Origin: an uncultured Chthonomonadaceae bacterium
GTDB taxonomy: Bacteria > Armatimonadota > Chthonomonadetes > Chthonomonadales > Chthonomonadaceae
Assembly: GCA_963835065.1 (NCBI GenBank)
Contig: CAWIEK010000019.1
Location: 1-64,000, forward strand
Length of the DNA stretch: 64,000 nucleotides
Direction: 5' to 3'
The notes beneath the pieces are model-generated. The model saw nothing but the letters and a program-made list of their open reading frames with translations. It was not told the DNA's origin and ran no database searches. Position numbers and translations under genes: made by a program. Positions 30,159 through 63,876 of this stretch are shown here, piece after piece (within the stretch, counting starts at the first letter, position 1; the number at the start of each line of letters is the position of its first letter).

Positions 30159-30309
30159 ACCGCGTGAGGAAGAAAAGAAGAAAAGAAGAAAAGGAGAGGG
30201 GGAGAACCTAACCTCGATTTCTTCTCTCTGTGAAACCTCTGTGTCTCTGTGTCTCTAGCGAAGCGGGTGGTGAAAATTCTTTGCCGTTGTAGAAAAAAGG
30301 AGCAGGCGT

Positions 30310-31263
30310 ATGTGGCAGCGATTTACGGAACGGGCGCGGCGAATGGTGTTTTATGCGCAGGAGGAAGCGGGGCGTTTGGGCGAAAACTATGTCTCGACGG
30401 AACACCTGCTGCTTGGACTGTTGCGTGAAAATGACAGCGTAGCCGCGCGTCTTTTGGATCAAATGGGCGTGGCATTGCCAAGTTTGCGCGCTAAAATTGA
30501 GCAGGAAGTGACGCAGGGCGAAGGGCGGTTGGGGCAGGACATGCAGTTGACTCCCCGCTCCAAGCGCGTGATTGATCTGGCGTATGATGAAGCCAAGCAG
30601 CTTAACAACAACTATATCGGCACGGAGCATCTGCTGCTCGGCATGATCCGTGAAGAGGAGGGAGTGGCGGGGCGTATCCTGAAGGAAAGCGGCGTGACGC
30701 TGGAACAAACGCGGCAACTGCTGCGAACGCTTCAAACAGAAGCCGCAAGCAAACCCACGCAGGCGCAGAGCGGGCAGGAAGCAGGCGCTCCCCAGGGTGA
30801 CGCTGCCGACTCCCAACTGACCAGTTTCAAGGAAACGCTGGGCCGCCTTGCCGCCGAAGCGCAATCTCTAAAGTTGAAAATGCAGGGCAGGGAAGCGGGG
30901 ACGGCTTCGGATACAGCGCCACCCGCGATATTCGGCGGGGCGCGCGGCGACATCGGCATTCTGAAAAACGCGGATGAGCGCGGGGTTGTAGAGTTCGTGC
31001 CGTCCGAGTCCGATCTTGCCGCGTTTGAGGACGTAATGCGAATCAAGGACGAGTATGCGTACCGCGAACTGGTCACAAACGGCAAAATCCTGCTGCTGGA
31101 AGCGGGCACACAGGCCAAACTGCTCAAGCGCGGAACCGGCACAACGGACTACGTTCGCATCCTGAGCGGCAAACTGGCGGGCGAAGTTGGCTATGTTCTG
31201 CGAACGGTTCTGCAAGACCTCAAGCCCGATGACCGGCCCTTTCCGCCACCCGTCGCAGACTAG
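30310..31263 (+). CDS. Clp N-terminal (double Clp-repeat) domain protein with unknown C-terminal domain
   Basis: MWQRFTERARR..TEHLLLGL twice; no AAA+ motifs. Confidence 0.9.
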   Translation: MWQRFTERARRMVFYAQEEAGRLGENYVSTEHLLLGLLRENDSVAARLLDQMGVALPSLRAKIEQEVTQGEGRLGQDMQLTPRSKRVIDLAYDEAKQLNNNYIGTEHLLLGMIREEEGVAGRILKESGVTLEQTRQLLRTLQTEAASKPTQAQSGQEAGAPQGDAADSQLTSFKETLGRLAAEAQSLKLKMQGREAGTASDTAPPAIFGGARGDIGILKNADERGVVEFVPSESDLAAFEDVMRIKDEYAYRELVTNGKILLLEAGTQAKLLKRGTGTTDYVRILSGKLAGEVGYVLRTVLQDLKPDDRPFPPPVAD

Positions 31264-45966: not shown

Positions 45967-47307
45967 CTATATTAGCGAACGGATAATCAACCCACTGTAC
46001 AACTTGGGATAAAAGAAGGTGGACTTTTGCGGCATTTTGTCGCCTTCGGAAGCCACGTCGCGCACCTCGGTCACGGTGGGGTTTTGCAGCAGGCAGGCCA
46101 GTTGGAACTCGCCCGACTGCACCTTTTGCACGGCTTCTTCCTCGTCGCGGGTGTAGGCTACGTCGGGCGTGTGCGCGAGTTCCTGCCAACTGATGCCCAA
46201 ACAGCGGTCCAAAACCAGCGTTTGCAGAATGGTCACGTCGAGATGCTTCCACGCCGCGCAATGCGAATTGTCCATCGCCGCTTCCGCCTGCGCCGGGTCG
46301 CGCAGAATAAGGCCGTATGCTTTGCCGGGCAGCACAATGCCGAACCGCTTCTCCCCTTCTATTTGCTGCTTGATCCACGTCCGCAGATCGGGAATGGACA
46401 TAAAATGGATGTGGAAATACCGCTCCAATTGCAGCGGCAAATCCTCCATACGCGCCGGGGCGATGTTCTTGACCAGCCGATGCGTCGGCAGCACCACCAT
46501 GCCGGCGTCTTCAAACGCGCTCAAACCAATGAGGATGAAGTCAGAAGGGGCAGTTGATAGTTGATAGTTGATAGTTGATAGGGAATCCTCTGCTGTTCCC
46601 TTTTCCCTCTGATAGTTGAGCGCCGTCTCATACCGATGGTGGCCGTCGGCGATCCAGACGCGCTGCGGGGCGAAAAAGGCTTCCAGTTCGGACAGAAGAG
46701 TGGGGTCAGTGTGGCGGTAAATAAGGTGCTGTTCCACATCGCGGCCGGTTTTGCCGGGCAGGTTGGCTTGCAGCAGGGGCGGCGTGTCGGCGCGGGATTG
46801 GCGCAGTTTTTGTACGACGGTTTGGCCGGGATCGGCGTACAGGCCGTAAATAGGTTCGGGGTTGGCCTGGGTAGCGCGCATCAGTTCCAGACGGTCGGCT
46901 TTGGCTTTGGGGTGCGTTTCTTCATGGGGCAGGACGACGCCATTGGCATACGGCTCCAGTTTCAGCGCGACAAACAGCGTGGTTCGCTCCACAATTTGCG
47001 TGGGGTCAAGCGGATGCTCGAACCGCTGAATGTACTCGTACAATCCGGGCGCGTCGTCCTGCGCCAACACGCCCCGTTCCAGCGCGTCGCGCAGAAAGGC
47101 GTTGGCGCGGGTGTAGCGGTTGTTGTCCGGCGTGTCAGCGGGCGTTTCCTTGTTGAGCATCAAGCGAACGATATTGTCGGGGTGGCGGGCGTAGAGTTCG
47201 TCCTGTTGCGCGGGTGAAAGCACGTCATACGGCGGCGCGATAACCAGATCGAGCGGCACACGAGCGGGAGCGTAATGAATTGCGGCAAAAGGAGCGATTT
47301 GCGCCAT
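45967..47307 (-). CDS. DUF1015 family protein
   Basis: APPYDV, LPHEET, IADGHHRYETA, MPQKSTFFYPK. Confidence 0.93.
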   Translation of the reverse strand: MAQIAPFAAIHYAPARVPLDLVIAPPYDVLSPAQQDELYARHPDNIVRLMLNKETPADTPDNNRYTRANAFLRDALERGVLAQDDAPGLYEYIQRFEHPLDPTQIVERTTLFVALKLEPYANGVVLPHEETHPKAKADRLELMRATQANPEPIYGLYADPGQTVVQKLRQSRADTPPLLQANLPGKTGRDVEQHLIYRHTDPTLLSELEAFFAPQRVWIADGHHRYETALNYQREKGTAEDSLSTINYQLSTAPSDFILIGLSAFEDAGMVVLPTHRLVKNIAPARMEDLPLQLERYFHIHFMSIPDLRTWIKQQIEGEKRFGIVLPGKAYGLILRDPAQAEAAMDNSHCAAWKHLDVTILQTLVLDRCLGISWQELAHTPDVAYTRDEEEAVQKVQSGEFQLACLLQNPTVTEVRDVASEGDKMPQKSTFFYPKLYSGLIIRSLI

Positions 47308-47776
47308 AGTTTGGGTCTTCTTTCCGTATCGGAGGGTGATTGTTGATAAATTAATGCAGGTCGAATTTGTTGAAAATGCCGCGCAGGAAGCGGGCAAGTG
47401 TCTTCATTATACCGCGAACTGGCGTTCACGCTAAAAATAAGACACCTGGAAGCAAAGAAAAATGCGCTCCGTCGAGCAAAACGGGAACATTATTTTCACC
47501 GCTTACGTCATGCTCCTACCCGATTCCAGTAATAAACGAGATAATTCCCGTTTGCGGCGCAGATAAGCAGGAAAATGCCCGATGATTGAGGAATATACCC
47601 CCTGACAACATATCGCCCTTGACGCAATTGTAAATTAACCCTGTTCCATCGCGCAATAAAGCGGCGCAATCAGGTATTCTTTGCAGAATATCCTGCTTTC
47701 TTCCGAAATTCCTTGTGAAACAAAGCAAGCCCATTTGAAACGCGCATTGAACAGAACCCTGTGGAGGAACGAACCT

Positions 47777-48655
47777 TTGAAAACCAACATGCAACGTAAC
47801 CTGATGTGTGCCTTTACCGGCATCCTTAGCCTGGCCGTCGTCGGAACCCTGACCACGCCCGCCAACGCGCAGGCCAAAATGAAGAAGCAGAAGAGCGCTC
47901 CGATGAAAAAAGACAGCATGATGAAGAGCGACAACATGCAGGGCAACATGATGGACAAGAACACCAGCGCCGAAGAGCGCCGGATGCAGACGCTGGGCGA
48001 AAAGTTCGGCGACTACAAGTTTGTGGATCCCGCGCCCCTGAACTATCCGATGGCCGCGCCCGCAACTCTGGACGTCTACCATTTCGAGACTTACAGGGGT
48101 GACCATATCATGCCCGGCTCCGCTCATGATGCCCGCATGGACAAGATGATGATGACGGACAAGAACATGATGAAGGGCGATAAGATGATGGGGCATGGCA
48201 TGACGCGCCAGGCGTATCGTGACGATCCCTTCACCGCCGACCCCGCGCCCGTCAACTATCCGCTTGCCGCGCCCGCAACCCTGGATGTCTATACCTTCAC
48301 CGACTACTCGATGAACAAAATCACGCCCGCCAACACCCTCGACACCCGGATGGACAAGCAGATGATGAAGGACACCATGGTTCCCACGAGCCGCGTGTTC
48401 AATCGCCAGTCCTACTACGATGACCCGTTCACCGCCGATCCCGCGCCGGTCAATTACCCGCTCGCCGCGCCGGCCAGTCTGGACCTGTATCACTTCCGCA
48501 CCTACCAGATGAATGAACTCCGCTCAGGCTCTGTGACGGATACGCGCATGGATAAGCAGATGATGCGCGACAACATGACGCCCGGCAGCGGCAAAATGGA
48601 CAGCACCATGAAGTCGGGCGGCACCACAAAGAAGGCCGGCAAGACGAAAAAGTAG
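47777..48655 (+). CDS. Secreted Met-rich protein with three internal repeats
   Basis: RBS GGAGG, signal peptide ending ANA, 3x DPAP(L/V)NYP(M/L)AAPA(T/S)LD(V/L)Y. Confidence 0.85.
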   Translation: MKTNMQRNLMCAFTGILSLAVVGTLTTPANAQAKMKKQKSAPMKKDSMMKSDNMQGNMMDKNTSAEERRMQTLGEKFGDYKFVDPAPLNYPMAAPATLDVYHFETYRGDHIMPGSAHDARMDKMMMTDKNMMKGDKMMGHGMTRQAYRDDPFTADPAPVNYPLAAPATLDVYTFTDYSMNKITPANTLDTRMDKQMMKDTMVPTSRVFNRQSYYDDPFTADPAPVNYPLAAPASLDLYHFRTYQMNELRSGSVTDTRMDKQMMRDNMTPGSGKMDSTMKSGGTTKKAGKTKK

Positions 48656-48783
48656 GTACTACCGGAAAGTTTGCCGTTTTGCTGAAATTTTGCTTGCAGA
48701 AACCGGCTTGCCTGTGGTAACATAATAACAATCATTCTGGTTGACGAACGCGAGGGACTGCAAACGCAGTTCGGCGCTTTTGT

Positions 48784-48848
48784 AGGCCAGCATCCTTACG
48801 GGACTGCCGTTTCGGCAAGACTCGGCAGCGATGCTGGCCTTTTGTTTG
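48784..48848 (+). terminator. Leader terminator/attenuator upstream of DUF2294
   Basis: AGGCCAGCATC..GATGCTGGCCT 11-bp stem followed by TTTGTTTG, about 35 nt before the ATG. Confidence 0.7.
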
Positions 48849-48877
48849 CTTTGGATGCCCGTTTTGGATGACACCCG

Positions 48878-49252
48878 ATGAGCCGACCGACAAAGGGAAC
48901 GCTGGAAGCCGAAGTCGCCAATGCCGTCACGCGATTCCATCGGGAACAGCAGGGACGCGGGCCGACAGATGTACGCGCGCACCTTCTTGGCGATTTAATT
49001 CTGGTGCGCTGCGCCGGGATTTTCACGCCGACAGAAGCGCGGCTCGCGGTCACGGACGAGGGCCGCAGGCTCATCAAAAGCGCGCGGCAGGAGTTGCGCA
49101 GTATCAACCATCTGGAAATCGAAGGCGTGGTTGCCACCCTAGCCAATTGCCCGGTATTGCGCAGTTATTGCGACATCAACACCGACGCCGGGGAACAGAT
49201 GGAAGTGTACGTGCTGGAAGCCGACGTAGAAAAACGCTTGCTGCGCCAGTAA
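48878..49252 (+). CDS. DUF2294 / MpsC-family protein
   Basis: TKGTLEAEVANA..GRGP..ILVR..FTPTE..GRRLIKSAR..DINTDAGE. Confidence 0.9.
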   Translation: MSRPTKGTLEAEVANAVTRFHREQQGRGPTDVRAHLLGDLILVRCAGIFTPTEARLAVTDEGRRLIKSARQELRSINHLEIEGVVATLANCPVLRSYCDINTDAGEQMEVYVLEADVEKRLLRQ

Positions 49253-49398
49253 CAAGGCGCGTTCGTAGGGGCATGATTTATCGCGCCCGCGCCTGCTGCG
49301 TTCATCGCGCCCGCGCCTGCTGCGTCCGTATAACAATTTCATACAAACCATGCGGTTGCCATGCAGAAGGGTAAATTTCACGCTTACCCGTCCAAGCG

Positions 49399-49473
49399 GA
49401 GGCCGAAGTTCGCAGACTTAGGAACGTTTTCGCGTTCCGAATGTCTGCGCGACTTCGGCCTCTTTTGCGTTTT
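49399..49473 (+). terminator. Leader terminator/attenuator upstream of the kdp operon
   Basis: GAGGCCGAAGT..ACTTCGGCCTC stem, inner CGCAGAC/GTCTGCG and GGAACG/CGTTCC, then TTTTGCGTTTT. Confidence 0.75.
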
Positions 49474-49523
49474 ACGCCTACTCTTGCCCAATCATGTGAG
49501 GCGAAAAGGAGCCATGAAGTACC

Positions 49524-49607
49524 ATGCAGGACATTCTTTACACAGTCGTGGTTGTCGTTTTCTTTGCGGCCAGCGCCGCTTATGTGCGCGGCTGCGACAA
49601 ACTTTGA
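49524..49607 (+). CDS. Small hydrophobic kdp-associated peptide (27 aa)
   Basis: MQDILYTVVVVVFFAASAAYVRGCDKL, single TM, directly before kdpF. Confidence 0.75.
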   Translation: MQDILYTVVVVVFFAASAAYVRGCDKL

Positions 49608-49619
49608 GGAGAAACGATC

Positions 49620-49706
49620 ATGTTTGATTATCTTTGGACGGGCGGGGTCGCCCTTCTCCTCCTCGTCTATCTGCTTTACGCGCTGCTGAAGCCGGAGCGC
49701 TTTTAG
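49620..49706 (+). CDS. kdpF: K+-transporting ATPase subunit F
   Basis: MFDYLWTGGVALLLLVYLLYALLKPERF; RBS GAGGAG. Confidence 0.93.
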   Translation: MFDYLWTGGVALLLLVYLLYALLKPERF

Positions 49707-49798
49707 GGAGTTGATAGTTGATGGTTGATAGTTGATAGTCCGAAACTTCTGTATCTCTATCAACTATCAACTATCAACTATCAACTAAGGGGACTCTT

Positions 49799-51664
49799 AT
49801 GACACCCAATGGCGTCATCCAAATTCTGTTGTACTTCGCGCTGATTATGCTGGTCACAAAACCGCTCGGCGCGTACATGGTCAAGGTGTTTGAAGGCGAA
49901 CGAACGCTGCTCTCGCCCCTCTTTCGCCCCATCGAGAAGCTGTTTTACGGCATGTTCGGGGTGCGCGAAGAAGAGGATATGAAGTGGACGACGTATGCCT
50001 TCGCCATGCTGATGTTCAGTGTGGTCGGCCTGCTGTTTACCTATGTCCTGCTGCGTTTTCAGGGGCATTTGCCCTTCAACCCTAAAGGTTTCAGCGGCAA
50101 GGACATGACGCCTGACCTGGCGTTCAACACGGCGGGGTCGTTCACGACCAACACCAACTGGCAAGCGTATGTGCCGGAAACAACCATCAGTTATTTTTCC
50201 AACATGGTGTCGCTTGCCATTCACAACTGGATGTCGGCGGCGACGGGCATGGCGATTGCCATTGCGCTTGTGCGTGGCTTTGCGCGGCGTTCCGCGCAGG
50301 GCATCGGCAACTTCTGGGTGGACATGATGCGCAGTACGCTGTACATCCTGCTGCCCCTGAGTTTTATTGCGGCTTTGCTGTTCGTGTGGCAGGGCGTGCC
50401 GCAGAATTTCAGCGCGTACACCGATGTGAAGACGCTGGAAGGCGCGGCGCAGGCGATTGCGCAGGGACCGGTCGCTTCGCAGGAAGCGATTAAGATGCTT
50501 GGCACGAACGGCGGCGGATTCTTCAACGCCAACAGCGCGCACCCGTTTGAGAACCCGACGCCGCTTGCCAACCTGTTCCAAATGTTCCTGATTTTCTGCA
50601 TCCCCGCCGGCCTGACGTACACATTCGGCAAGATGGTGGGCAACACCAAACAGGGATGGGCGCTGTTCGCAGCCATGTCCGCCATGTTCTTTACGGGCGT
50701 GTTCGTATGCTACGGAGCCGAATCGAAAGGCGTTCCTACAGCCGTAGAGGCTGCGCATATTCTGACGGTGGATACGGGCACACAGCCCGGCGGCAACATG
50801 GAGGGCAAGGAAACCCGCTTCGGAATCGCCAACTCCGCCCTGTTCGCAACCATTACGACGGACGCAAGCTGTGGCGCGGTCAACAGTATGCACGACAGCT
50901 ACACGCCGCTTGGCGGCATGGTTCCCCTGTTCAACATTATGACGGGCGAGGTGATTTTTGGCGGCGTGGGCGCGGGGCTATACGGCATGTTGATGTACGC
51001 CGTAATCGCGGTCTTCATTGCCGGCCTGATGGTCGGGCGGACGCCGGAGTATCTGGGCAAGAAGATCGAGCAGTATGAGGTGAAAATGGCGATGCTGGCC
51101 GTTCTCGTTCTGGCTGCCGACATCCTGTGCTTTACGGCCATTTCCACCAACCTGAATATCGCGCCGGGAGCCACATCGCAGACGTTTACTGACAAGCAGA
51201 CAGCCGACGAAGACAAGCTGACGCAGCAATTCCCGTCCGCGCAATGGAACCACGTCAACAACAGCAGTCCGAGCAACTACTACGGCGCGACGTACAACAA
51301 CCAGAACAACAGCGGGGCGCACGGCTTCTCGGAAATCCTGTACGCCTACACGTCGGCAACCGGCAACAACGGTTCGGCCTTCGCGGGCATCACAGCCAAC
51401 ACGCCGTACTACAACCTGACGATTGGCATCGCCCTGCTCATCGGGCGCTTTATGATGATTATTCCGCTCCTGGCGATGGCGGGCAGCCTGGCAAAGAAGA
51501 AACTGGTGCCGGCATCGGCGGGCACGTTCCCGACAGATAGCGCGACGTTTACCGTCCTGCTCGTCGGCGTGATCCTTATCGTGGGCGCCCTGACCTTCTT
51601 CCCGGCTCTGGCGCTAGGTCCAATCGTGGAACACTTCCAGATGCTTGGCGGAAAGACGTTTTGA
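49799..51664 (+). CDS. kdpA: K+-transporting ATPase subunit A
   Basis: [30 protein letters not shown]. Confidence 0.98.
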
Positions 51665-51787
51665 GGAGGTAGACGGTAGACGGTAGACGGTAGACAGTAG
51701 GAACTCCCTCCACTTACTGTTTAGTTTAACATAAACGCGAGGAATGTCCTACCGTCTACCGTCTACCTCCCTACCCGGAGATTACCA

Positions 51788-53914
51788 ATGGCTACTCAAA
51801 TGCAGACGCCGACCCCGATTGTAGGCGGGACGCCCGGCGGTTTCCATAAACCCAAAAATGCCCCGAAGTCTTTGTTTGACCCGGCGATTATGAAGCGCGC
51901 GGCGGGGGATGCTTTCAAAAAACTCGATCCGCGACTGGTGGCGAAGAACCCGGTCATGTTTGTGGTCGAAGTCGGCAGCGTGATTACCACCTACTACTGG
52001 ATTAAGGGATTGGTCACGCACGACGGCACGGCGCTGTTTGTCGGGCAGGTATCGCTGTGGCTGTGGTTCACCGTCCTGTTCGCCAACTTCGCGGAAGCGA
52101 TGGCGGAAGGCCGGGGTAAGGCGCAGGCCGACACGCTGCGCAAAGCCAAAACCGACGCGGTAGCGCGGCGATTGGCGGGCGGCAATCTGAAGGGCGAAGA
52201 AGAGCGCGTAGCCGGTACGCAGTTGCGCAAGGGTGATCTTGTCGTCTGCGAAGTCAACGACGTGATCCCCGGCGACGGCGAAGTGATAGACGGCATTGCC
52301 AGCGTGGACGAATCGGCGATTACGGGAGAATCCGCGCCGGTTATCCGCGAATCGGGCGGCGACCGGAGCGCGGTCACGGGCGGAACCAAAGTGCTTTCGG
52401 ATCGCATCGTGATTCGCATCACTTCCAATCCCGGCGAAACGTTTATTGACCGCATGATCGCGCTTGTCGAGGGCGCGCAGCGGCAGAAGACGCCGAATGA
52501 AATCGCGCTTTCCATTCTGCTGTCCGGCCTGACGATTGTGTTTTTGCTGGCAACCGTCACGCTCCAGCCGTATGCCATTTACAGCGTTCGCTCGGCGGGC
52601 AGCGGTTCGCCGCCCACGATTACGGTTTTGATTTCGCTGCTTGTATGCTTGATACCGACCACGATTGGCGGGCTGCTGTCGGCCATCGGTATCGCGGGCA
52701 TGGATCGCGTCATGCAGCACAACGTTCTTGCCATGTCGGGCAAAGCCGTAGAAGCGGCGGGTGACGTGAACACCCTGCTGCTGGACAAAACCGGAACCAT
52801 TACATTAGGAAACCGGCAGGCGTCGGAATTCATTCCGCTTCCGGGCGTCAACATCAACGAACTGGCGGACGCGGCGCAGCTCTCTTCCCTTGCGGACGAA
52901 ACGCCGGAAGGCCGCAGCATCGTCGTCCTGGCGAAAGACAAATACGGCCTGCGCGAACGGCAACTGAGCGCAAATGAAGCCGAATTCGTGCCCTTCACGG
53001 CGCAAACCCGCATGTCGGGCGTGAACATGAACGGAACGCAGGTGCGCAAGGGCGCAGCGGCAAGCGTGGCATCATGGGTGCAGGAGCAGGGTGGGAGCGT
53101 TCCCGCCGAACTCGACGAGATCGTGACCCGTATCTCCTCGCTTGGCGGTACGCCGCTGACCGTCGCCGTCAACAACAAGCCGCTTGGCGTTATCTACCTG
53201 AAAGACATTGTCAAGGGCGGGATGCGGGAACGGTTCGATCAGATGCGGGCGATGGGCATCAAAACCGTGATGATTACGGGCGACAACCCGCTGACGGCGA
53301 AAGCCATTGCCGAAGAAGCGGGCGTAGACGATTTTCTCGCGCAGGCTACGCCCGAAAACAAGATGGACTTGATTAAAAAGGAGCAGCAGGGCGGCAAACT
53401 GGTCGCCATGACGGGCGACGGCACGAACGACGCCCCCGCGCTGGCGCAGGCCGATGTCGGCGTCGCCATGAACACGGGTACGCAGGCCGCGAAAGAAGCG
53501 GGCAACATGGTGGACTTGGACTCCAACCCCACCAAACTGATTGAAATTGTGGAAATCGGCAAGCAGTTGCTCATGACGCGGGGCGCGCTGACCACGTTCA
53601 GCATCGCAAACGATGTGGCGAAATACTTTGCCATCATCCCGGCCATGTTCGTTGTCACGTACCCGGCCCTGAACCGGCTCAACATCATGCACCTGAGCAA
53701 CCCGAATTCGGCAGTGCTGTCGGCGGTTATTTTCAACGCCCTGATTATCATCGCGCTGATTCCGCTGGCTCTGCGCGGAATCGCGTACAAGCCGATGGGC
53801 GCGGCGCAAGTCCTGCGCCGCAACCTGATGCTCTACGGCGTCGGCGGCCTGATTATCCCGTTCCCCGGTATCTGGATTATTGATCGCTTGCTTGTGCTGC
53901 TGCATTTAGCGTAG
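51788..53914 (+). CDS. kdpB: K+-transporting ATPase subunit B
   Basis: TGES, IPTTIG, DKTGT, GDGTND. Confidence 0.98.
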
Positions 53915-53925
53915 AGGAGTTCTCC

Positions 53926-54582
53926 ATGTTCCAACAATTACGCGCCGCTGTGGTCAGCGTGCTTGTCATTACGGTATTGACGGGGTTGATTTTCCCCTTT
54001 GTGATTACGGGTATTGCCAGAGTGATTTTTCCCCGGCAGGCGAACGGCAGCCTGATCGAGCAGGATGGGAAAGTGGTCGGTTCGGCTTTAATCGGGCAGA
54101 ACTTCGCCGCGCCCGGTTACTTTCATCCGCGCCCTTCGGCGGCAGGCAACGGCTACGATGCGGCCAACTCCAGCGGCACGAACCTGGGGCCGACGAGCGA
54201 CAAACTGATTAACGGCATCCACAAGAAGACGGCGGACGGCAAGGACGATCCGGGCAACTTCGACGGTATCAAAGACCTGGCCGACGCTTACCGCAAGGAA
54301 AACAATCTGCCTGCCACGCAGGACTTGCCTTCCGACGCCGTGACCCGCTCCGCCAGCGGCCTGGACCCGGAAATCAGCCCCGCCAATGCCGCCCTGCAAA
54401 TCGGGCGCGTCGCCAAACAACGCGGCCTGGGCGAAGATCAGGTGAAGAAACTGGTGGACGACAATACGGCGGGACGGCAACTCGGCATTTTGGGCGAACC
54501 CCGCGTCAACGTCCTGAAACTGAATCTCGCGGTGGATCAGGCCGCGCCCGGCAAAGCCGGCGTAACGCCGCCGAGTCCGTAA
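53926..54582 (+). CDS. kdpC: K+-transporting ATPase subunit C
   Basis: QANGS, YFHPRPS, SASGLDPEIS, RVNVLKLN. Confidence 0.97.
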   Translation: MFQQLRAAVVSVLVITVLTGLIFPFVITGIARVIFPRQANGSLIEQDGKVVGSALIGQNFAAPGYFHPRPSAAGNGYDAANSSGTNLGPTSDKLINGIHKKTADGKDDPGNFDGIKDLADAYRKENNLPATQDLPSDAVTRSASGLDPEISPANAALQIGRVAKQRGLGEDQVKKLVDDNTAGRQLGILGEPRVNVLKLNLAVDQAAPGKAGVTPPSP

Positions 54583-54656: not shown

Positions 54657-56072
54657 ATGAAGAAGGTATTGAGGACAAGCGCAAATTTCATTCGGAGCGA
54701 CAAGGCAGGCGCATTGCTGACTGCCCTGCTGCTTACCATGACGGCAACAGCAAAGGCGGAGGAGACCGCCGCCAAACAGGACAAAACCGCAGCCGCGTCA
54801 ACCCAGGCCGCGCCCGCGCAGACCAACCCGCCGCAGACGAGTACGCCGCCGCAGAAACCCGCCGAAGGCCAGCCTGCCGCGCCCGCTCCGGCCACGCCTG
54901 CTTCGCCTGCGCCGGGAACCGTCACGTACTCCGGGCTGATTGACGTGTACTTCGGCATCAATGCCCGCGCCCCCTACAGCAACGGTCCTTCGCCCTTCGG
55001 CGGCCATGCCTTCACCGGGCTGATCTTCCCCAACGGCGAACGCTTCGGCATTGACAACGTGGGACGCTCCTTCGATGTCAATGACCGCGATCCCAGTTTC
55101 AGCCTGGGCGAGTTCAACATCAGCCGCACGGAAGGCAAGGGCTTTCCATTTGGCGTGACGGCCACGCTCACGACGGGCGACACGGCTCGCCTCGTGCATG
55201 CGACGGAACCCGGCGGCACGAGCAGTTGGCAGAACTTGCAGCAGTTGTACCTGACCAAGACCATCCATGCGGGAGGGCGCGACATTGCCCTGGACGGCGG
55301 CATCTTCGTGACGCCGCTGGGCTTGGAAGTGATTGAAAGCACCAGCAACGACAACTACTCGCGCAGCTTCGGCTTCCAGTACGGCGTTCCCTTCTACCAT
55401 GCGGGCTTTCGCGCCACTCTGCCCCTGTCGTCCAAATTGACGCTGTTGGGCGCGATTGTCAATGGCTGGAACAACATCGCCGATGATGGGGACGGCAAAA
55501 CCGGCATTGGACAACTGACGTGGAAGCCCACAAGCACGTTCACGGGCATTTTGGGTTTCATCGGCGGCACGGAAGGCACAGGCGCGTATGGTCCCATCCT
55601 CGCTCCCAAGAACCAGGCGGGCATCAACACCTACGTGTACGAGGCGCAGGGCATTTATCAGGCCACTCCCGCCCTCAAACTCTCCGGCATCGTGGACTAC
55701 GGCACGGCTGCGGGGCACACGCTGGTGACAACCGCCGCCGGAGCCAGCGGGCAGGCGCATGTGTCGGGCACGTGGCTTGGGTTGGGCGGGTATGCGCGGT
55801 ATCAGTTCACGCCGCGCCTTGCTCTTGCCGGACGCATCGAGCAGTTTGATGACAACGCAGGCGCGGGCGGCATCGGACTGCGAACCGGGGGCTTAGGGTA
55901 CAACCGCCTGCGCGAAGGAACGGTCACGCTGGAGTACGCTTTCCTGCGCGGCCATCTCATCTCGCGCCTGGAGTACCGCCACGACGCTTCCAATCAGTCC
56001 TTCTTCGGCGCGGGAACCAACACAGCCCGCGATCAAGATACCATCTACGGCAGCGCCGCGTACAAATTCTAG
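54657..56072 (+). CDS. Outer-membrane beta-barrel porin-like protein
   Basis: Signal peptide, YSRSF..PFYHAG, VNGWN, RLEYRHD, C-terminal YKF. Confidence 0.85.
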   Translation: MKKVLRTSANFIRSDKAGALLTALLLTMTATAKAEETAAKQDKTAAASTQAAPAQTNPPQTSTPPQKPAEGQPAAPAPATPASPAPGTVTYSGLIDVYFGINARAPYSNGPSPFGGHAFTGLIFPNGERFGIDNVGRSFDVNDRDPSFSLGEFNISRTEGKGFPFGVTATLTTGDTARLVHATEPGGTSSWQNLQQLYLTKTIHAGGRDIALDGGIFVTPLGLEVIESTSNDNYSRSFGFQYGVPFYHAGFRATLPLSSKLTLLGAIVNGWNNIADDGDGKTGIGQLTWKPTSTFTGILGFIGGTEGTGAYGPILAPKNQAGINTYVYEAQGIYQATPALKLSGIVDYGTAAGHTLVTTAAGASGQAHVSGTWLGLGGYARYQFTPRLALAGRIEQFDDNAGAGGIGLRTGGLGYNRLREGTVTLEYAFLRGHLISRLEYRHDASNQSFFGAGTNTARDQDTIYGSAAYKF

Positions 56073-56350: not shown

Positions 56351-57894
56351 ATGAACCTGAACGTTTTGCCGTTTTTCTGGCTGATTTTGATTGCGTTTAT
56401 TGTCGCGCTGGCGGCGCGGCGCGTGAAGGTTCCTTACGCCCTCGCCCTGGTGGTAACGGGGCTGGTGTTGGGAGCCGCGCATCTGCTGCCGCATACGCAC
56501 CTGGAACCGTCTCTGCTGTTTACCGTGTTTCTGCCGCCCCTCCTGTTCGAGTCGGCCATGCACCTGCGCGCGGAAGATTTGAAGCAAAACTGGAAGCCCA
56601 TCAGCATCTATACGCTGGCGGGAACTATCGCTTCCACCTTTATTGTGGGCGGGCTGACGGCCTGGGGATTGCACATTCCGTTTGCAGCCGGGTGCGTGTT
56701 CGGCGCGTTGATTTCGACAACCGACCCGATTTCGGTAATCGCCATCTTCAAGCGATTGGGCGCGGGCAAGCGGCTGACGCTGATTATGGAAGCGGAAAGC
56801 CTGTTTAATAACGATACGGCTGTGGTGCTGTTTACGGTGATGCTGGGCGCGATGGCAGGCGGTAAAATTTCGCTGGCGCAGGGTATCGGGCAGTTTGTGC
56901 AGCTTGTAGCCGGGGGCGCGTTGTTGGGAAGCGCCATTGGCCTGCTGGCTTCCCGCGTCCATAACGAATTGAACGATCATCTGGTAGAGATCACGCTGAC
57001 AACCGTTGTCGCGTTTGGATCCTATCTGTGCGCCGAAGCGCTGCATGTTTCGGGGGTAATGGCGGTTGTGGTGGCAGGCATTGTGCTTGGAAATGTGGGG
57101 ATGCAGACGGCTATGACGCCGGGTACGCGCCTGGCCGTGACCGCGTTTTGGGAATACGCCGGGTTTGTCGTGAATTCCATTGTGTTCCTGCTGGTCGGTA
57201 TCGAAGTCGGGTTTGTGGATTGGCGGCATAAGATCGGGCTGGCATTGGGCGCAGTGGCAATCGTGCTTATTGGACGAGCCGCGATATACCCGATTTCGCT
57301 GCTTGTGAACCGCGTCAAGGGCGATATTCCCTTCGCCTGGCAGCATGTGCTGTTTTGGGGCGGGCTGCGCGGCGCGCTTTCGATGGCATTGGTTTTGGGA
57401 CTGGACAGACGATTTTCCGCAACGGGAAACGCTGATTGCGGCGACATTCGGAGTAGTGCTTGTTTTCGCTGCTGGTGCAGGGCTTGACGGTCGGGCCGCT
57501 GATGCAGAAACTGGGGCTGTGTAACGCGCAAAGCAAGGAACCCAAAGACCATCGGCGGCTGGCGAACGAACTGGTGGCGTGTCAGGCGGCGATTGCGGAA
57601 CTGGAGCATTTGCGCGCGGCGGAAGCCCATGCGAACTGGTCTATCGAACTGCTGATGCGCGACTACCGTACCCGGCTGACCCTATTGGAACAGGCGCTGG
57701 AAGAAGCGCAGCCCGGCCACAAAGTTCTGCACCGCAAACAGGCCGCTCGCGCCCGTCAACTCGCCCTGCAAGCCGAAAAAAGTTCCTTACAGGAAGCGGA
57801 GCGGCAAGGCTGGCTCGACGAAGACGACTGGCGCGAACTGTCCGCCCGCATTGACTCGGAACTGCTGGCGTTACATGCGGCGGAGAAGGAGTAG
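56351..57894 (+). CDS. CPA1/NhaP Na+(K+)/H+ antiporter (frameshift near 57417)
   Basis: FLPPLLFE, TDPISV, ESLFNND, GLRGALS. Confidence 0.93.
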
Positions 57895-57984: not shown

Positions 57985-59819
57985 ATGCACAACCTGAAAA
58001 CGCAACTATGGGTAAGTCACCTGCTGCTCATATTGGTGCTGGCAGTGGTGATGGCGAGCGCGATCTTTAATTTTGTCCGCCTGGGGCGCTCTATTGACCG
58101 CATCCTGAAAGACAATTACAAGAGCGTGATTGCCGCGCAGGATATGAAGGAAGCGCTGGAGCGGCAGGACAGCGCGGCCACGTTTTTTCTCGCGGGGCAG
58201 ACGCAGAAAGCGCAGGACGCAGTATCAGGCGAACTGGACGCGGTTCCGGGACGCTTACCAGACCGAAGCGCACAACATTACGGAGGCGGGCGAACAGGAG
58301 ATTGCCGACGACATTGGACGCAACTTTGTGGATTATCGGCAGGAAGTGGAGAAGCTGCTGTACGCTCGCCCGCCTATGCCGCCCGAACAGGCGCGGGCGT
58401 TTTATTTTGGAACATTGGAGCCGGCTTTCGCGCACTTGAAGCAGCGGGCGCAGGACGTTCTTGACCTGAACCAGAAGGCGATTGTCTATGCGGATGAACA
58501 GGCCAAAGCGGAAGCGCGGCGTGTTTCCCTGGTCAGTTTCGGGGTCACGGCAGGCGCGTTCGTTCTGCTTCTTCTGCTTGTGCCCTGGACGATCCGGGCT
58601 TCGCTGACTCCGCTGCGGTCCCTGGCGCGGCAGGCGGAAGAAATCGGCGTCGGGCATCTGAACCAACGTATCGAATTGAACCGGACGGATGAGTTGGGCG
58701 CATTGGCGGCTTCGTTCAACAGCATGGCCGAGAAACTGCGGGCGGCGCGGCAAGTGGAGGAGGAGCGGCTGCACCTGGCCGAGCGCATGTCGGACGCCGC
58801 GCTGGAAAGCCTGTACGATCCCGTCATTATCACGAACGGCGCGGGGCGCGTCGCGCATTTGAACCCGGCTGCGGAGGGCTTGTTCGGTTCGGCATCACAG
58901 GCGAAATCCCGTCCTATCGCGCAGGTGGTGGGAGACAAAGCGATTGTGGACGCCGTAACGCGCGCCATTCAGCAGGAGCGGGTTTCCGCGTCGGAAGATG
59001 AAGCCGGGTTTGTCACGCGGCGCGATGGGAGAAGTGGAGCGCACGTATCGGCTTCGCGCCAGTCCCATGCGGGATGAAGACGGCAGCGTGTTGGGAGCCG
59101 TTACGGTTCTGGAAGACATCACGCACCTGCGCGAACTGGATCGCTTGAAAACGGAATTTATCGGCGTGGCTTCCCACGAACTGCGGACGCCCGTCACCAG
59201 CCTGCTCCTATCGGTGCAATTGCTTCAGGAGGGCGCAGTGGGGGAACTCACGCCCGATCAGAAGGAAGTGATCGAAGCGCAGCGCGAGGATTTGGAACGT
59301 TTAGAACGCATGATGCGCGACCTGCTCGACATTACGCGGCTGGAAGCGGGCGTGACGCCGCCGCGTTTTGCCCTTGTCGCGCCAAACGAACTGGCCGATT
59401 CGGCAGTGCAGGCGGTAGAAGCGCCGGCCCATGCCAAAGGGGTGTGGTTAGTCCGCGATTGGGCGGATAATTTGCCTGCTGTCCGCGCAGACCGTAATCA
59501 GATTTCGCGCGTTCTGGTCAACCTCCTCAACAACGCGGTTCGCCACACGCCTTCCGGGGGCAACGTCACCGTGAGCGTTCGGCAGGAGGGCGACAAAGTT
59601 AGATTTCAGGTGGCGGACACGGGAACGGGTATTCCCGCCGAGTACCTGCCGCACATTTTCGAGCGTTTTGTGCAGGTTCCGGGCGCAACACGGGGCGGCG
59701 CGGGATTGGGATTGTCCATTGCGCAAACGATTTTGAAAGCGCACGGCAGCGAAATCAAGGCGGCAAGCCTGCCGGGCAAGGGCGCGACGTTTACGTTCGC
59801 GCTGCCGGTAGGGGGATAG
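57985..59819 (+). CDS. Sensor histidine kinase, 4HB-HAMP-PAS-HisKA-HATPase (two frameshifts)
   Basis: DELGALAASFNSM, ASHELRTP, NLLNNAVRH, DTGTGI, GAGLGL. Confidence 0.93.
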
Positions 59820-59951
59820 GTTTCAGGTTTCAGGTGTCAGGTGTCAGGGAAGAACTATTTGATTGCTTATCCTGCTCTCTAGAACAAAAGCACCTATGCA
59901 GGCTCCTCCTGACACCTGAAACCTAACACCTCGGTTGAGGAGATACAAACA

Positions 59952-60698
59952 ATGGCGCGAATTCTGGTAGTAGACGATGAAAATAATATCCGCATGATGG
60001 TTCGGCTGGCCTTGCAGCACGTCGGGCATCAGGTGGAAACGGCGGCGGACGGCACAGAAGGCTTGGAAAAGTTCGGCAACGGCAGCAATTACGATCTGGT
60101 ATTGCTGGATCAGCGTATGCCGGGATTGGAAGGGCTGGATGTTCTCAAGCAGATGCGCTATCACCATCCGCAGGCGAAAATCATCATGGCAACCGCGTTC
60201 GGCACGATTGACCTGGCCGTAGACGCGATGAAGGCGGGCGCGACGGATTTTTTGCGCAAGCCCTTTACGGCGGAAACCCTGCGCGGAGCCGTACAATCCA
60301 CCCTACAGGAAGTTCCGAATACCGAACACCGAACACCGAACACCCGGACGGGCGTTACATTCGGCTCGACTACGATCAACGGCTTTCGGATTGAGTTTCA
60401 GGCCGGTTCGGGCGAACATGTCGGCGGCGGGTTTCGGCAGGTGTTTACGGTGCGCAGTCCGGGCGGCGAAAACAAAATCTGTACCGTTGTTCTGCCCTCG
60501 TATATCACGGAATTGGTAAAAGCGCATGCCGACTGCGAGCAGTTTCCCGGCAATGACCGCTTCTGGCAGGCATTGTGCGAGGAAGCGTTGGCGAATTACT
60601 TGTGGCAAAACGCGGAACTGCCCGCCGGGGCGCAAATGCGAATTGAGGAATTATCAACAGGGCTGCGCCGTTTCGTGGATACCGTGATGGCGGCGTAG
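59952..60698 (+). CDS. Response regulator with unrecognised C-terminal domain
   Basis: ILVVDD, LLDQRMPG, ATAFG, RKPF; no OmpR-type or HTH output recognised. Confidence 0.9.
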   Translation: MARILVVDDENNIRMMVRLALQHVGHQVETAADGTEGLEKFGNGSNYDLVLLDQRMPGLEGLDVLKQMRYHHPQAKIIMATAFGTIDLAVDAMKAGATDFLRKPFTAETLRGAVQSTLQEVPNTEHRTPNTRTGVTFGSTTINGFRIEFQAGSGEHVGGGFRQVFTVRSPGGENKICTVVLPSYITELVKAHADCEQFPGNDRFWQALCEEALANYLWQNAELPAGAQMRIEELSTGLRRFVDTVMAA

Positions 60699-60772: not shown

Positions 60773-62725
60773 ATGGCATTTTTAGACCGACTTTTGGGCA
60801 GGCGGCTGGCGACCCATGAAGAAGATGAGCAAAAAGTCGGCGTGTTCGCGGGCATTCCCATGCTGGGACTGGACGCGCTTTCCTCATCCGCGTATGGCCC
60901 CGAAGCCGCGCTGACGATCTTGATTCCATTGGGAGCGCTCGGTCTGGCGTATATCGGCCCGATCATCGGCGTGATTCTGGCACTGCTGATTATCCTGTAT
61001 TTTTCGTACCGGCAGACGATTGCCGCGTATCCCAATGGCGGCGGCTCGTACACCGTTGCGAAGGAAAACCTGGGAACGCGGGCAGGACTTTTGGCGGCGG
61101 CGGCGCTGCTGCTGGATTATGTGATGAATGTGGCGGTGGGCATTTCGGCGGGCATGGGCGCGCTGATTTCCGCCGTGCCCGGATTGCATCGGTATCTGCT
61201 GCCCTTGTGTTTGGTCACGCTGGTCTTTGTCGCGTTTATTAATCTGCGCGGAGTTCGAGAATCGGGACTGGCGTTCGCCCTTCCCACCTATTTGTTTGTC
61301 GGTACGCTTACGGTTGTGCTTGTACTGGGAGTGGGCAAGATTTTGCTGAGTGGCGGGCATCCCGTACCGGTTGTCGCGCCTCCCGCCCTGCCTGCCGGAA
61401 CGGGAGCCGTCACGCTGTGGCTGTTGCTGCGCGCGTTTGCGAGTGGCTGTACGGCGATGACAGGCGTGGAAGCCGTCAGCAACGGCGTCACGGCCTTTGC
61501 CAAACCCGCCGTTGTCAACGCGCAGCGAACCTTAACGGCGATTGTCGTGATTTTGGGCGTTTTGCTTGCGGGTATCGCCATTCTTGCCCGCGCATACCAT
61601 ATCAGCGCGATTGACCCGGACAGCCCCGCGTATGACAGCATCGTTTCGCAATTGGTGGCGGCGGTTGCGGGGCGGGGCGTGTTTTACTATTTCACCATCG
61701 GCAGCGTTCTGGCCGTGCTTGCGCTTTCCGCCAACACCAGTTTTGCCGACTTTCCGCGCCTGTGCCGGCTGGTCGCGCAGGACGATTTTCTCCCCCACGC
61801 CTTCGCCAACCGGGGGCGGCGGCTTGTATACTCCTACGGCATCGCCATTCTGACCGTTTCCGCCGCCATTCTGATGATCGCATTCGGCGGCATCACGGAT
61901 CGGCTGATTCCTCTGTTTGCTATCGGCGCGTTTCTGGCGTTTGCGCTGTCGCAAGCCGGCATGGTGGTGCATTGGAAGCGCGTGGGAGGGCCGCGGGCGC
62001 AAACGTCCCTGTTCGTGAACGGCCTGGGCTGCGTGGTTACGGTGATTGCGCTTGTCATCGTTATCATTGCTAAATTTGTGGAAGGCGCGTGGGTCACGCT
62101 GCTGCTGATACCCGCGTTCCTCATCGTTTTTGACCGCGTGAAGGCGCATTACGTGCATGTGGCGCAGGAAATCCATTGCCCGCGCCCCCTGAATTTGGAA
62201 CGCTTGCAGCCGCCGGTTGTCGTGGTTCCCATCAAGGCGTGGAATACGATTGCCGAACGCGCGCTGCAATTCGCGCTGCAACTGTCGCCGGACGTGGTTG
62301 CCGTTCACATCAGCGCGGACGAAGGCGCGGCGTATGGCCTGCGCATGCAATGGGCGCAGTACGTGGAAGAGCCAATTGCGCAGGCGGGATTGCCGCAGCC
62401 GCGCCTGCTCCTGCTTTTGTCGCCTTATCGCCGCCTGTTCACGCCCCTGCTTAACTTCATCAATCAATTAAAAGAGGAATACCCCTCGCGGCTGATCGCC
62501 GTCATTATCCCGGAGCTCGTGGAAAAGCGCTGGTATCAATATCTGCTGCACAATCAGCGCGCGACGGGATTGAAAGCCGCGCTCCTGCTGCGCGGCGACA
62601 GCCGGGTCGTGGTGATCAACGTGCCCTGGTATTTAGGAGAAAGCGCGGAAAATCCTATTAGCGACGATGACTCAAAACCGCCGTTAAGGTTTGTCGAAGC
62701 GGAGAATAGCCTGGGAGGTGGATAA
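60773..62725 (+). CDS. Second KimA/YdaO-like APC K+ transporter
   Basis: LDALSSSAYG, AYPNGGGSY, MTGVEAVSNG, NTSFADFPRL. Confidence 0.92.
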   Translation: MAFLDRLLGRRLATHEEDEQKVGVFAGIPMLGLDALSSSAYGPEAALTILIPLGALGLAYIGPIIGVILALLIILYFSYRQTIAAYPNGGGSYTVAKENLGTRAGLLAAAALLLDYVMNVAVGISAGMGALISAVPGLHRYLLPLCLVTLVFVAFINLRGVRESGLAFALPTYLFVGTLTVVLVLGVGKILLSGGHPVPVVAPPALPAGTGAVTLWLLLRAFASGCTAMTGVEAVSNGVTAFAKPAVVNAQRTLTAIVVILGVLLAGIAILARAYHISAIDPDSPAYDSIVSQLVAAVAGRGVFYYFTIGSVLAVLALSANTSFADFPRLCRLVAQDDFLPHAFANRGRRLVYSYGIAILTVSAAILMIAFGGITDRLIPLFAIGAFLAFALSQAGMVVHWKRVGGPRAQTSLFVNGLGCVVTVIALVIVIIAKFVEGAWVTLLLIPAFLIVFDRVKAHYVHVAQEIHCPRPLNLERLQPPVVVVPIKAWNTIAERALQFALQLSPDVVAVHISADEGAAYGLRMQWAQYVEEPIAQAGLPQPRLLLLLSPYRRLFTPLLNFINQLKEEYPSRLIAVIIPELVEKRWYQYLLHNQRATGLKAALLLRGDSRVVVINVPWYLGESAENPISDDDSKPPLRFVEAENSLGGG

Positions 62726-63876
62726 TGCCAACGGATGCCGACATGCCGCGCCGCCCCACGCCCGAAGAACTGCTGGAGCGGGTGCAGCGCGAGGAAAAAC
62801 AGCAGAAACGGGGACGCCTGAAAGTGTTCCTGGGCTTTGCGGCAGGCGTGGGCAAATCCTACGAAATGCTTAACGAGGCCAACCGGCGGCGACAGCGCGG
62901 GCAGGATGTGGTTATCGGGTACATCGAAACCCACAGGCGCAAGGGAACCGAGGAGCAGCTTGGCGACCTGGAAACCGTTCCGCGCAAGCAAATCGAGTAC
63001 CGGGGAACGGTTCTGGAAGAAATGGATACGGAAGCCATTCTCGCCCGCCATCCGCAATGGGCGGTTGTGGACGAACTGGCCCATGCCAACGTGCCCGGTT
63101 CGGCTCGCGCCAAGCGCTGGCAGGACGTGGAGCTTCTGCTGGACGCGGGCATCCATGTGCTGACGGCAATGAACGTGCAGCATCTGGAAAGCCTCAACGA
63201 TACAGTTTACGACATTACCGGAATCCGCGTCCGCGAAACCGTTCCCGACCGTATCATCCGGGACGCAGACGAAGTGAAGATGGTGGACATTACGCCCCGT
63301 TCGCTGATTCACCGTTTGGAGCGCGGCGACATTTACGCGCCGGATAAGGTACAGCAGTCGCTGCAAAACTGGTTCCGGGAAGGCAATCTGAACGCCCTGC
63401 GCGAAATCGCCCTGCGGGAAGTGGCGCACGAGGTGGACGAGGACGTGGCCGCGTACCGCAAGGAGCGCAACGTCCGGGAAACGTGGGCCACGCATGACCG
63501 CGTGATGGTGTGCATCAGCCCCGACCAATCTTCGCTGCGCCTGTTGCGGCGGGGCTGGCGCATCGCGGGGCGGCTTCACGCCGAGATCGTCGCCGTGTAC
63601 GTGGAAAATAAGCCGACAACGGAAGAGCAGAAACAGATATTACGGGACGACTTTGCGCTCGCGGACCGCCTGAAAGTGCCGGTTGTCACGCTGCATGGCG
63701 ATGTGGCGAACGAGATCATCCGCTACGTCCGCGAAAACCAGATCACGCAAATCGTCATCGGCCATTCGGATCGAACGCGCTGGCAGGAGTTCGTCAAGGG
63801 TTCCATCATCAACCGCCTCACCTACGCCCTGCGCACCATAGACATTCTGATTGTCGCCTCGGCGGAGGAAGGTTAG
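62725..63876 (+). CDS. kdpD: Stand-alone KdpD N-terminal + USP domain protein
   Basis: RGRLKVFLGFAAGVGKS, VDELAH, NVQHLESLND, VRETVPD, USP tail; no TM or kinase domain. Confidence 0.9.
   Translation: MPTDADMPRRPTPEELLERVQREEKQQKRGRLKVFLGFAAGVGKSYEMLNEANRRRQRGQDVVIGYIETHRRKGTEEQLGDLETVPRKQIEYRGTVLEEMDTEAILARHPQWAVVDELAHANVPGSARAKRWQDVELLLDAGIHVLTAMNVQHLESLNDTVYDITGIRVRETVPDRIIRDADEVKMVDITPRSLIHRLERGDIYAPDKVQQSLQNWFREGNLNALREIALREVAHEVDEDVAAYRKERNVRETWATHDRVMVCISPDQSSLRLLRRGWRIAGRLHAEIVAVYVENKPTTEEQKQILRDDFALADRLKVPVVTLHGDVANEIIRYVRENQITQIVIGHSDRTRWQEFVKGSIINRLTYALRTIDILIVASAEEG

Follow-up and report, generated by a model that had tools for sequence, protein, structure and literature searches.

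The two leaders that flank mpsC (DUF2294) contain the same conserved hairpin of about 58 nucleotides (nt), located in each case between an octamer and an intrinsic terminator and overlooked in the first-pass annotation of this DNA. Copies of this hairpin covary, overlap with terminators, co-occur with MpsC, and are missing from kdp operons that have a kdpE gene close by, and the locus described here has the layout promoter-T1-mpsC-T2-kdp. Judging from sequence and comparative data, we consider it probable that MpsC is a protein antiterminator that works in the manner of the bgl operon. The structurally conserved hairpin is an RNA family absent from Rfam 15, so that the RNA-protein pair is new, while the kind of mechanism is already known.

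Layout of the mpsC-kdp island

In the window, i.e., the whole 64,000-nt stretch that was analyzed, mpsC is followed by genes for a 27-amino-acid peptide, KdpF, KdpABC, a porin, a Na+/H+ exchanger, a kinase, a receiver protein, an APC permease, and a KdpD-like nonkinase sensor, in this order (Table 1). The short peptide is presumably KdpG-like. A Pfam scan confirmed that the gene between the leaders belongs to the DUF2294/MpsC family (PF10057) and that the island contains no OmpR/KdpE-type gene, both in agreement with the first-pass annotation. KdpD consists here of its N-terminal part and Usp only and has no adjacent OmpR-type KdpE, which sets the locus apart from KdpDE control. Across the whole genome, which is 92% complete, no KdpE-like match was found at an E value of 1e-50, and the best ones, with 41% identity, lie on other contigs.

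Table 1. Positions of the parts of the mpsC-kdp island in the window
Feature	Position	Strand	Basis or remark
Promoter, sigma70-type: TTGCAG (48694-48699)-N18-TG-extended TAACAT (48718-48723)	48694..48723	+	Predicted from sequence
ATAACAAT, first copy; straddles the inferred start site	48725..48732	+	No conserved part of the RNA: 4/101 leaders
Antiterminator hairpin, copy 1; GGUUGAC 48739-48745 pairs with GUAGGCC 48782-48788	48735..48792	+	44.9 bits; training member
Intrinsic terminator T1 and U-tract; 3' strand of copy 1 serves as 5' arm	48784..48848	+	Folding
mpsC/DUF2294 (PF10057), 124 aa, candidate RNA-binding antiterminator	48878..49252	+	Pfam E 1e-30; model pLDDT 95; conserved basic residues
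Dispersed palindromic genomic repeat and short duplication, outside the switch	49262..49325	+	Many genome-wide blast matches
ATAACAAT, second copy, with AU-rich spacer before copy 2	49330..49337	+	Sequence
Antiterminator hairpin, copy 2; GGUUGCC 49354-49360 pairs with GGAGGCC 49398-49404	49350..49408	+	42.6 bits; training member
Intrinsic terminator T2 and U-tract; 3' strand of copy 2 serves as 5' arm	49398..49473	+	Folding
27-aa hydrophobic peptide, recurs before kdpF in relatives	49524..49607	+	Sequence; no Pfam or NCBIfam match
kdpF	49620..49706	+	PF09604
kdpA, kdpB, kdpC	49799..54582	+	PF03814, PF00122, PF02669
HAMP-PAS histidine kinase (three overlapping frames) and response regulator (receiver and unclassified C-terminal domain)	57985..60698	+	Candidate signal input
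APC-family permease and KdpD-like nonkinase sensor (KdpD N-terminal domain and Usp)	60773..63876	+	NF038185 440 bits, under the cutoff of 550

The promoter proposed earlier, TTGCAG-N18-TAACAT with an extended TG, is present before leader 1, and relatives show a −35/−10 pair at the same place by eye, even though the consensus scan did not list it. An independent kdp promoter downstream of 49462, which would make the second hairpin a plain terminator, had been named as a point against control through the leaders; the promoter scan found no promoter-like site in this genome either there or elsewhere between mpsC and kdp. In some relatives that lack the first leader, a promoter-like site is visible by eye before the second one.

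The first-pass annotation had recognized the leaders as look-alikes by their common start ATAACAAT. ATAACAAT indeed stands at 48725-48732 and 49330-49337 and nowhere else in the window (the 8-Mb genome has 111 copies), and the copy of leader 1 is placed after the −10 box and before the inferred start site. The octamer is nevertheless ruled out as a conserved shared motif, being found within 45 nt before only 4 of 101 homologous leaders, two of which are the window's own, and both leaders of the closest relative (L073, 86% protein identity) lack it. The looser ACAAY precedes 31 of the 101 leaders, against a shuffled mean of 9.9 and maximum of 18, with the kin among them not independent.

Several further features of the window were recorded. 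The 324-amino-acid protein encoded just upstream of the promoter (47681-48655) looks secreted, is rich in Met and Lys, and has three internal repeats and no Pfam family. The dispersed palindromic repeat after mpsC (copy at 49262-49291) has 51 copies in the genome by a strict pattern. Between kdpF and kdpA, positions 49709-49790 form a long imperfect palindrome of tandem GTTGATA/TATCAAC heptamers, which gives spurious miRNA matches and whose unit also occurs in frame inside the gene at 45967-47397. The Na+/H+ exchanger gene (56351-57894) is split into two frames and the histidine kinase gene (57985-59819) into three overlapping ones; the kinase frame change was confirmed against a relative, and these are either assembly errors or real decay. 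Positions 164-333 on the minus strand hold two adjoining tRNA-like genes that are atypical and score low, at 34 and 51 bits.

A conserved hairpin overlapping both terminators

The hairpin consists, in order, of GGUUG(A/C)C, a short loop, a stem of 3 to 4 bp, an A.G/G.N loop, a variable hairpin, and G(U/G)AGGCC. As starting loci we used the DNA around MpsC matches in 69 of 301 genomes of the phylum (65 loci and the window, of which 59 gave a usable blast match). A descriptor search gave 48 copies, of which 15 precede mpsC and 33 follow it, and in at least 13 loci, the window among them, the motif is found on both sides of the gene. Thus, of the ATAACAA-plus-GGCC hairpin motif expected earlier at other DUF2294 loci, the hairpin does recur, while the first half was wrong.

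A broader covariance model (R2, 52 sequences) produced 101 matches in 94 chosen sources. Covariation in the leaders of DUF2294 genes, which the first-pass annotation had suggested looking for, is present in the shared hairpin: over the 101 copies, 85.6% of the cells are paired, 376 cells change on both sides, and the covariation score is 0.606, compared with 0.214 for shuffled and at most 0.164 for slid alignments (the alignment being fitted to the model and including kin). Pair 10-87, for example, is AU in 64 and CG in 35 copies. Positions G6, G9, and G76 of this alignment (A5) are invariant, and A88 and C92 are kept in 100 of the 101 copies. The middle stem pairs loosely in copy 2.

Besides these copies, variant leaders after mpsC in L203 and L036/L038 were missed by both models; they carry compensatory changes in the basal stem and an altered loop base. 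Tandem copies were seen as well, two in L130 and three in L018, where three motif-terminator units (L018:2002-2242) follow mpsC and precede an unclassified gene.

The genome of the window holds five copies. Besides the two described here, contig C60 has three, each with a terminator of its own. The C60 copies were found only with the covariance model, and blastn detected no leader paralogs in this genome. They lie at 18858-18920(+), 55304-55369(−), and 30264-30329(−) (L153, L155, and L157) and precede a DUF1003 gene, a second kdpA broken in pieces, and an unclassified 413-amino-acid gene followed by a kinase-like gene. They would form a small in-trans regulon of the single mpsC.

The two long hairpins with U-tracts that had been noted at 48784-48840 and 49399-49462 are confirmed by folding (−35.5 kcal/mol, z −4.7 versus shuffles, and −48.4 kcal/mol, z −7.8, respectively). 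Over the whole set, the terminator overlaps the 3' strand of the conserved hairpin in 93 of 101 leaders; in 79 of these 93 it is more stable than the antiterminator hairpin, and the basal antiterminator stem is kept in none of their 93 minimum-energy folds. Forcing this stem costs 8.6 kcal/mol in leader 1 and 15.3 kcal/mol in leader 2. In folds of successively longer prefixes, the antiterminator hairpin forms first and is displaced only once the terminator completes, with the terminator as the computed default fold. Since the 3' strand of each hairpin doubles as part of a stronger intrinsic terminator, termination is the predicted default.

Taken by themselves, these folds would also suit plain leaky terminators that set basal expression, with an upstream hairpin that is purely structural or serves stability: the terminator is always the predicted stable fold, and the copy 2 hairpin alone (49330-49400) is no more stable than shuffles (z 0.09). 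We regard this explanation as very improbable, given the conserved unpaired bases and compensatory changes across phyla, the exact overlap with the terminator arm in the 93 leaders, and the exclusion with kdpE described below. The conserved hairpin and its overlap with the terminator instead support the earlier reading of both leaders as attenuators.

Distribution of the hairpin, MpsC, and KdpE

In a sample of 150 genomes of the phylum, 33 encode MpsC, 48 encode KdpA, and 21 carry the motif at an E value of <1e-3. All but one of these 21 are MpsC positive, an association that is partly built in because the models were trained on mpsC-adjacent copies, and in which kin are not independent. The exception, G127, has an intact leader (L219:809-866) directly before the final codons of a kdpD-like gene, and neither kdpA nor mpsC nor a regulator gene was found in this genome; it reads as a deletion relic of a whole mpsC-kdp island. 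Conversely, the motif was found in none of the 22 genomes with KdpA and without MpsC, and an unfiltered scan of 21 of 30 kdpA loci, those without a descriptor match, did not reveal it either. The co-occurrence could also reflect a mobile cassette.

Among the 33 MpsC-positive genomes, 13 gave no motif match in the genome searches. Missed motifs are expected, since these searches score only 35 to 36 candidates per genome; within the 13, G109 has a variant recognized by eye and a targeted search found the motif in G071, while five have weak MpsC matches (E values of 1e-4 to 1e-10) and six come from distant clades. In the distant Armatimonadota clades of MpsC, the motif lies within 1.5 kb in only 4 of 19 loci. 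Weak motif matches (E above 0.007) were dropped as chance because those inspected lack a terminator, seven in the phylum itself and two, G332 and G316, in the second phylum described below; G087 C50, G023 C173, and the second match in G049 were outside this inspection.

The motif and KdpE exclude each other at kdp operons. By hand count, none of 19 motif-led operons (18 scored ones plus G109) has a kdpE-like gene at a distance of up to 10 kb from kdpA, compared with 23 of 29 others. The contrast holds inside families f1 and f6: G006, from the window's own family, and G059, from f6, use KdpE, and their kin use the motif. Together with the co-occurrence in 20 of 21 genomes, this supports the earlier suggestion that MpsC is paired with the leaders in place of KdpE. 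In family f29, a weak MpsC-like gene directly precedes kdp, the motif is missing, and a strong kdpE match is present, a pattern that would fit decay after a takeover. Weak MpsC-like genes right before kdp, without the motif and in genomes with a strong kdpE match, were seen at L195, L200, L201, and L212.

Outside the phylum, divergent copies of the motif (e.g., GGAAGAC/GUAAGCC) adjoin mpsC in Omnitrophota, Planctomycetota, Anaerolineales, Latescibacterota, Elusimicrobia, Spirochaetales, and Acetoanaerobium. Distant mpsC loci have the motif in 26 of 31 cases, 8 of them outside the training set. When we searched a second phylum (121 genomes, mostly small assemblies), its three MpsC-positive genomes were the three top motif matches, and the 118 MpsC-negative genomes contained no intact motif leader; three weaker matches fall in coding sequence without terminators, and one of them, G400 (E 2.5e-4), was dropped for this reason. 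We also scanned metagenomes starting from the motif, which gave at least 119 pattern matches. Among the matches listed, 10 pass a loose terminator filter, of which 4 have MpsC and 3 have kdp genes nearby, against none of the 109 others. Six of those listed look real by eye, and in the two of these that lack MpsC the upstream sequence is only 63 or 300 bases long.

The genes behind the motif are diverse. From 34 hand-picked cases, of which 3 had no open reading frame call, we obtained 31 first genes after the motif: PEP carboxykinase (11), SAICAR synthetase (4), aminotransferase (2), DUF4914 (2), APC permease (2), MFS, MpsC, KdpA, and DUF1003 (1 each), and no family (6). Since the motif stands beside mpsC in other phyla and yet precedes PEP carboxykinase, purC, aminotransferase, and transporter genes, it follows MpsC and not the ion.

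This last point bears on the possibility that the hairpin is itself a ligand-sensing ON riboswitch, responding to Na+, lack of K+, bicarbonate, or a nucleotide signal, with mpsC as a co-regulated neighbor; a cation-responsive riboswitch had been put forward in the first-pass annotation. The invariant loop nucleotides and the tandem copies would suit an aptamer, the logic is that of Na+-I riboswitches, in which the aptamer excludes a terminator (PMC9337991), and in Bacillus thuringiensis a c-di-AMP riboswitch takes the place of KdpDE (PMC6488665). Against it, a Rfam search that included the Na+, Li+, and c-di-AMP classes proposed for screening (c-di-AMP, Li+-I/II, and Na+-II) gave no riboswitch match in the window and 40 further loci at gathering thresholds, nor in 48600-49800 at E values of up to 10, leaving the leader RNA uncatalogued. 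The genes behind the leader range over K+ uptake and carbon or purine metabolism, the motif is absent from the 22 genomes with KdpA and without MpsC and, as far as intact leaders go, from the 118 MpsC-negative genomes of the second phylum, mpsC lies upstream of the leader and thus beyond its control in many loci, and a single hairpin with few invariant bases would be small for a binding pocket. We therefore think a riboswitch unlikely, and the cation-responsive version in particular is weakened by the genes found behind the same RNA elsewhere.

MpsC as a candidate antiterminator and its known counterparts

MpsC is the best candidate for the factor that reads the hairpin, because the RNA follows MpsC across unrelated regulons and is missing where KdpE runs kdp. 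The relatives are Armatimonadota, and in a quick protein tree the kdp-linked MpsC members form one group. The predicted structure of MpsC (pLDDT 95) is made up of a helix, two strands, two helices, two strands, and a helix, and basic residues at positions 6, 19, 22, 27, 44, 67, and 70 are near-invariant, as are several acidic ones. We found no sequence relative in the PDB and no Foldseek match to the model at E values of up to 0.001. The best structural match has a Z score of 6.7, to unrelated proteins, with none at 8 or above; RbfA (KH type II) scores below this (Z 5.6, rmsd 3.9, 89 aligned residues) and is a hint only. Nine longer homologs include one receiver-MpsC and one MpsC-CBS fusion, as expected of a regulatory output domain.

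A different trans-acting factor could read the hairpin, with MpsC as a co-factor, inhibitor, or sensor; for kdp, this would be the island response regulator, whose receiver is joined to an unclassified 119-amino-acid domain (60309-60698) that has no Pfam family and might be ANTAR-like. This domain is confidently modeled and sometimes has a second copy nearby; it had no usable Atlas match, and receiver-domain matches took up the results of the regulator's fold search. Of 150 genomes, 29 have the domain, for the most part within kdp islands; among them are G109, G059, and 17 of the 18 in which a scored motif precedes kdp. ANTAR regulators demonstrate that receiver proteins can act on RNA (PMC12591593). 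However, while 19 of the 29 genomes have the MpsC/motif system, the other 10 have the domain without a motif match, some of them beside KdpE-type kdp operons, and it was MpsC, not this domain, that served as the neighbor by which the copies in distant phyla were found. Such a factor seems to us rather improbable, even somewhat more so than a riboswitch.

In the mechanism that we favor, antitermination by MpsC, a factor would be needed to stabilize the antiterminator hairpin, and MpsC would provide this by binding its two internal loops (invariant G9 and G76 and near-invariant A88). The stabilized hairpin would allow read-through into mpsC and then into kdpFABC, so that mpsC would positively autoregulate itself through T1. 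Low K+ might gate MpsC, perhaps via the KdpD-like sensor, the kinase, and the receiver protein of the island, which are candidates by position; this is the weakest step. A positive loop behind a default-off terminator also needs a leak to start, which counts against the model.

More broadly, MpsC/DUF2294 may constitute an unrecognized family of RNA-binding antiterminators with its own conserved RNA target, used as a plug-in signaling output either alone or fused to receiver or CBS domains. It would have displaced KdpE in Armatimonadota, with KdpD-like sensor, separate kinase, and receiver protein passing a low-potassium signal to MpsC, which would open its own and the kdp leaders. On the comparative data, this wider proposal could about equally turn out right or wrong. 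If true, it would add a third way for kdp to be controlled, besides KdpDE and the riboswitch for c-di-AMP, as well as a new means of controlling bacterial potassium uptake where KdpE is missing. This bears on kdp control in KdpE-less species, mostly unexplained so far; KdpD without KdpE is reported for 42.6% of Kdp-bearing species (PMC6488665). The 124-amino-acid protein and the 58-nt hairpin would make a minimal two-part switch, and their presence in other phyla before genes related to CO2 and carbon suggests that the regulator is widely reused.

The proposal gives MpsC/DUF2294 a directly testable function, where work on Staphylococcus aureus had found none (PMC6689103). MpsC of S. aureus and YbcI of Bacillus subtilis belong to the same family, PF10057. 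In S. aureus, mpsC sits in a bicarbonate-transporter operon, and its deletion is reported to have had no growth effect (PMC6689103). Transcripts are on record before ndhF in both species, namely, the terminator-bearing leader RsaX05 in S. aureus (PMC2790875) and the 158-nt ncr181 in B. subtilis (PMC2965217). In the openly accessible literature, we found neither this RNA described nor RNA binding ascribed to MpsC. The main text of a paper on 224 motifs (PMC5737381) mentions neither kdp, potassium, nor carboxykinase, and its supplement may bear on novelty; a term search of bioRxiv 10.64898/2026.09.08.750065 gave no match, nor did MpsC, DUF, or kdp appear in the available text of PMC12591593.

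Na+-I (DUF1646, RF03071) and Li+/Na+-II (nhaA-I) riboswitches are likewise terminator-excluding ON switches of ion-transport genes, and both start with GGUUG (PMC9337991); the element described here shares with Na+-I its mutual exclusion with a terminator. In Na+-I, however, there are two consecutive stems, GGUUG pairs near CAAG, and the P2 loop is G rich, whereas here GGUUG faces AGGCC in one hairpin. RF03071 did not match these leaders even at E values of up to 10, with only subthreshold matches elsewhere in five genomes, and a Na+-I variant was rejected by the covariance model and by comparing published construct sequences by eye.

The ydaO c-di-AMP riboswitch on kdpFABC of B. thuringiensis also acts at the RNA level, next to a truncated KdpD without KdpE, and is mutually exclusive with KdpDE (PMC6488665); in contrast to our leaders, it is an OFF switch with a Rfam model, which found no such match here. 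ANTAR regulators (EutV, AmiR, and NasR) tie an RNA-binding output to receiver or sensor domains, comparable to the receiver-MpsC and CBS-MpsC fusions. ANTAR is, however, a three-helix bundle acting on dual hairpins (PMC12591593), whereas MpsC is predicted to be alpha/beta with one hairpin as its proposed target, and the ANTAR domain PF03861 matched neither MpsC nor the island regulator.

The same layout as here is known from BglG/SacY/LicT and their RAT sites: in the Escherichia coli bgl operon, an intrinsic terminator stands on either side of the regulator gene, each terminator overlaps with a binding site, and transporter genes follow (PMC8836124; PMC5393181). The island has this feature: at both flanks of the regulator gene, an intrinsic terminator is overlapped by an antiterminator hairpin. 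MpsC differs from BglG and SacY in having no CAT (PF03123) or PRD domain, with PF10057 as the only family in the Pfam scan. The RNA differs as well, since the RAT measures about 30 nt and its system is PTS controlled, whereas the hairpin here is about 58 nt long, has a variable apical stem, and belongs to no Rfam family. The mpsC-hairpin system would thus work like BglG/RAT, yet it is not a member of that group.
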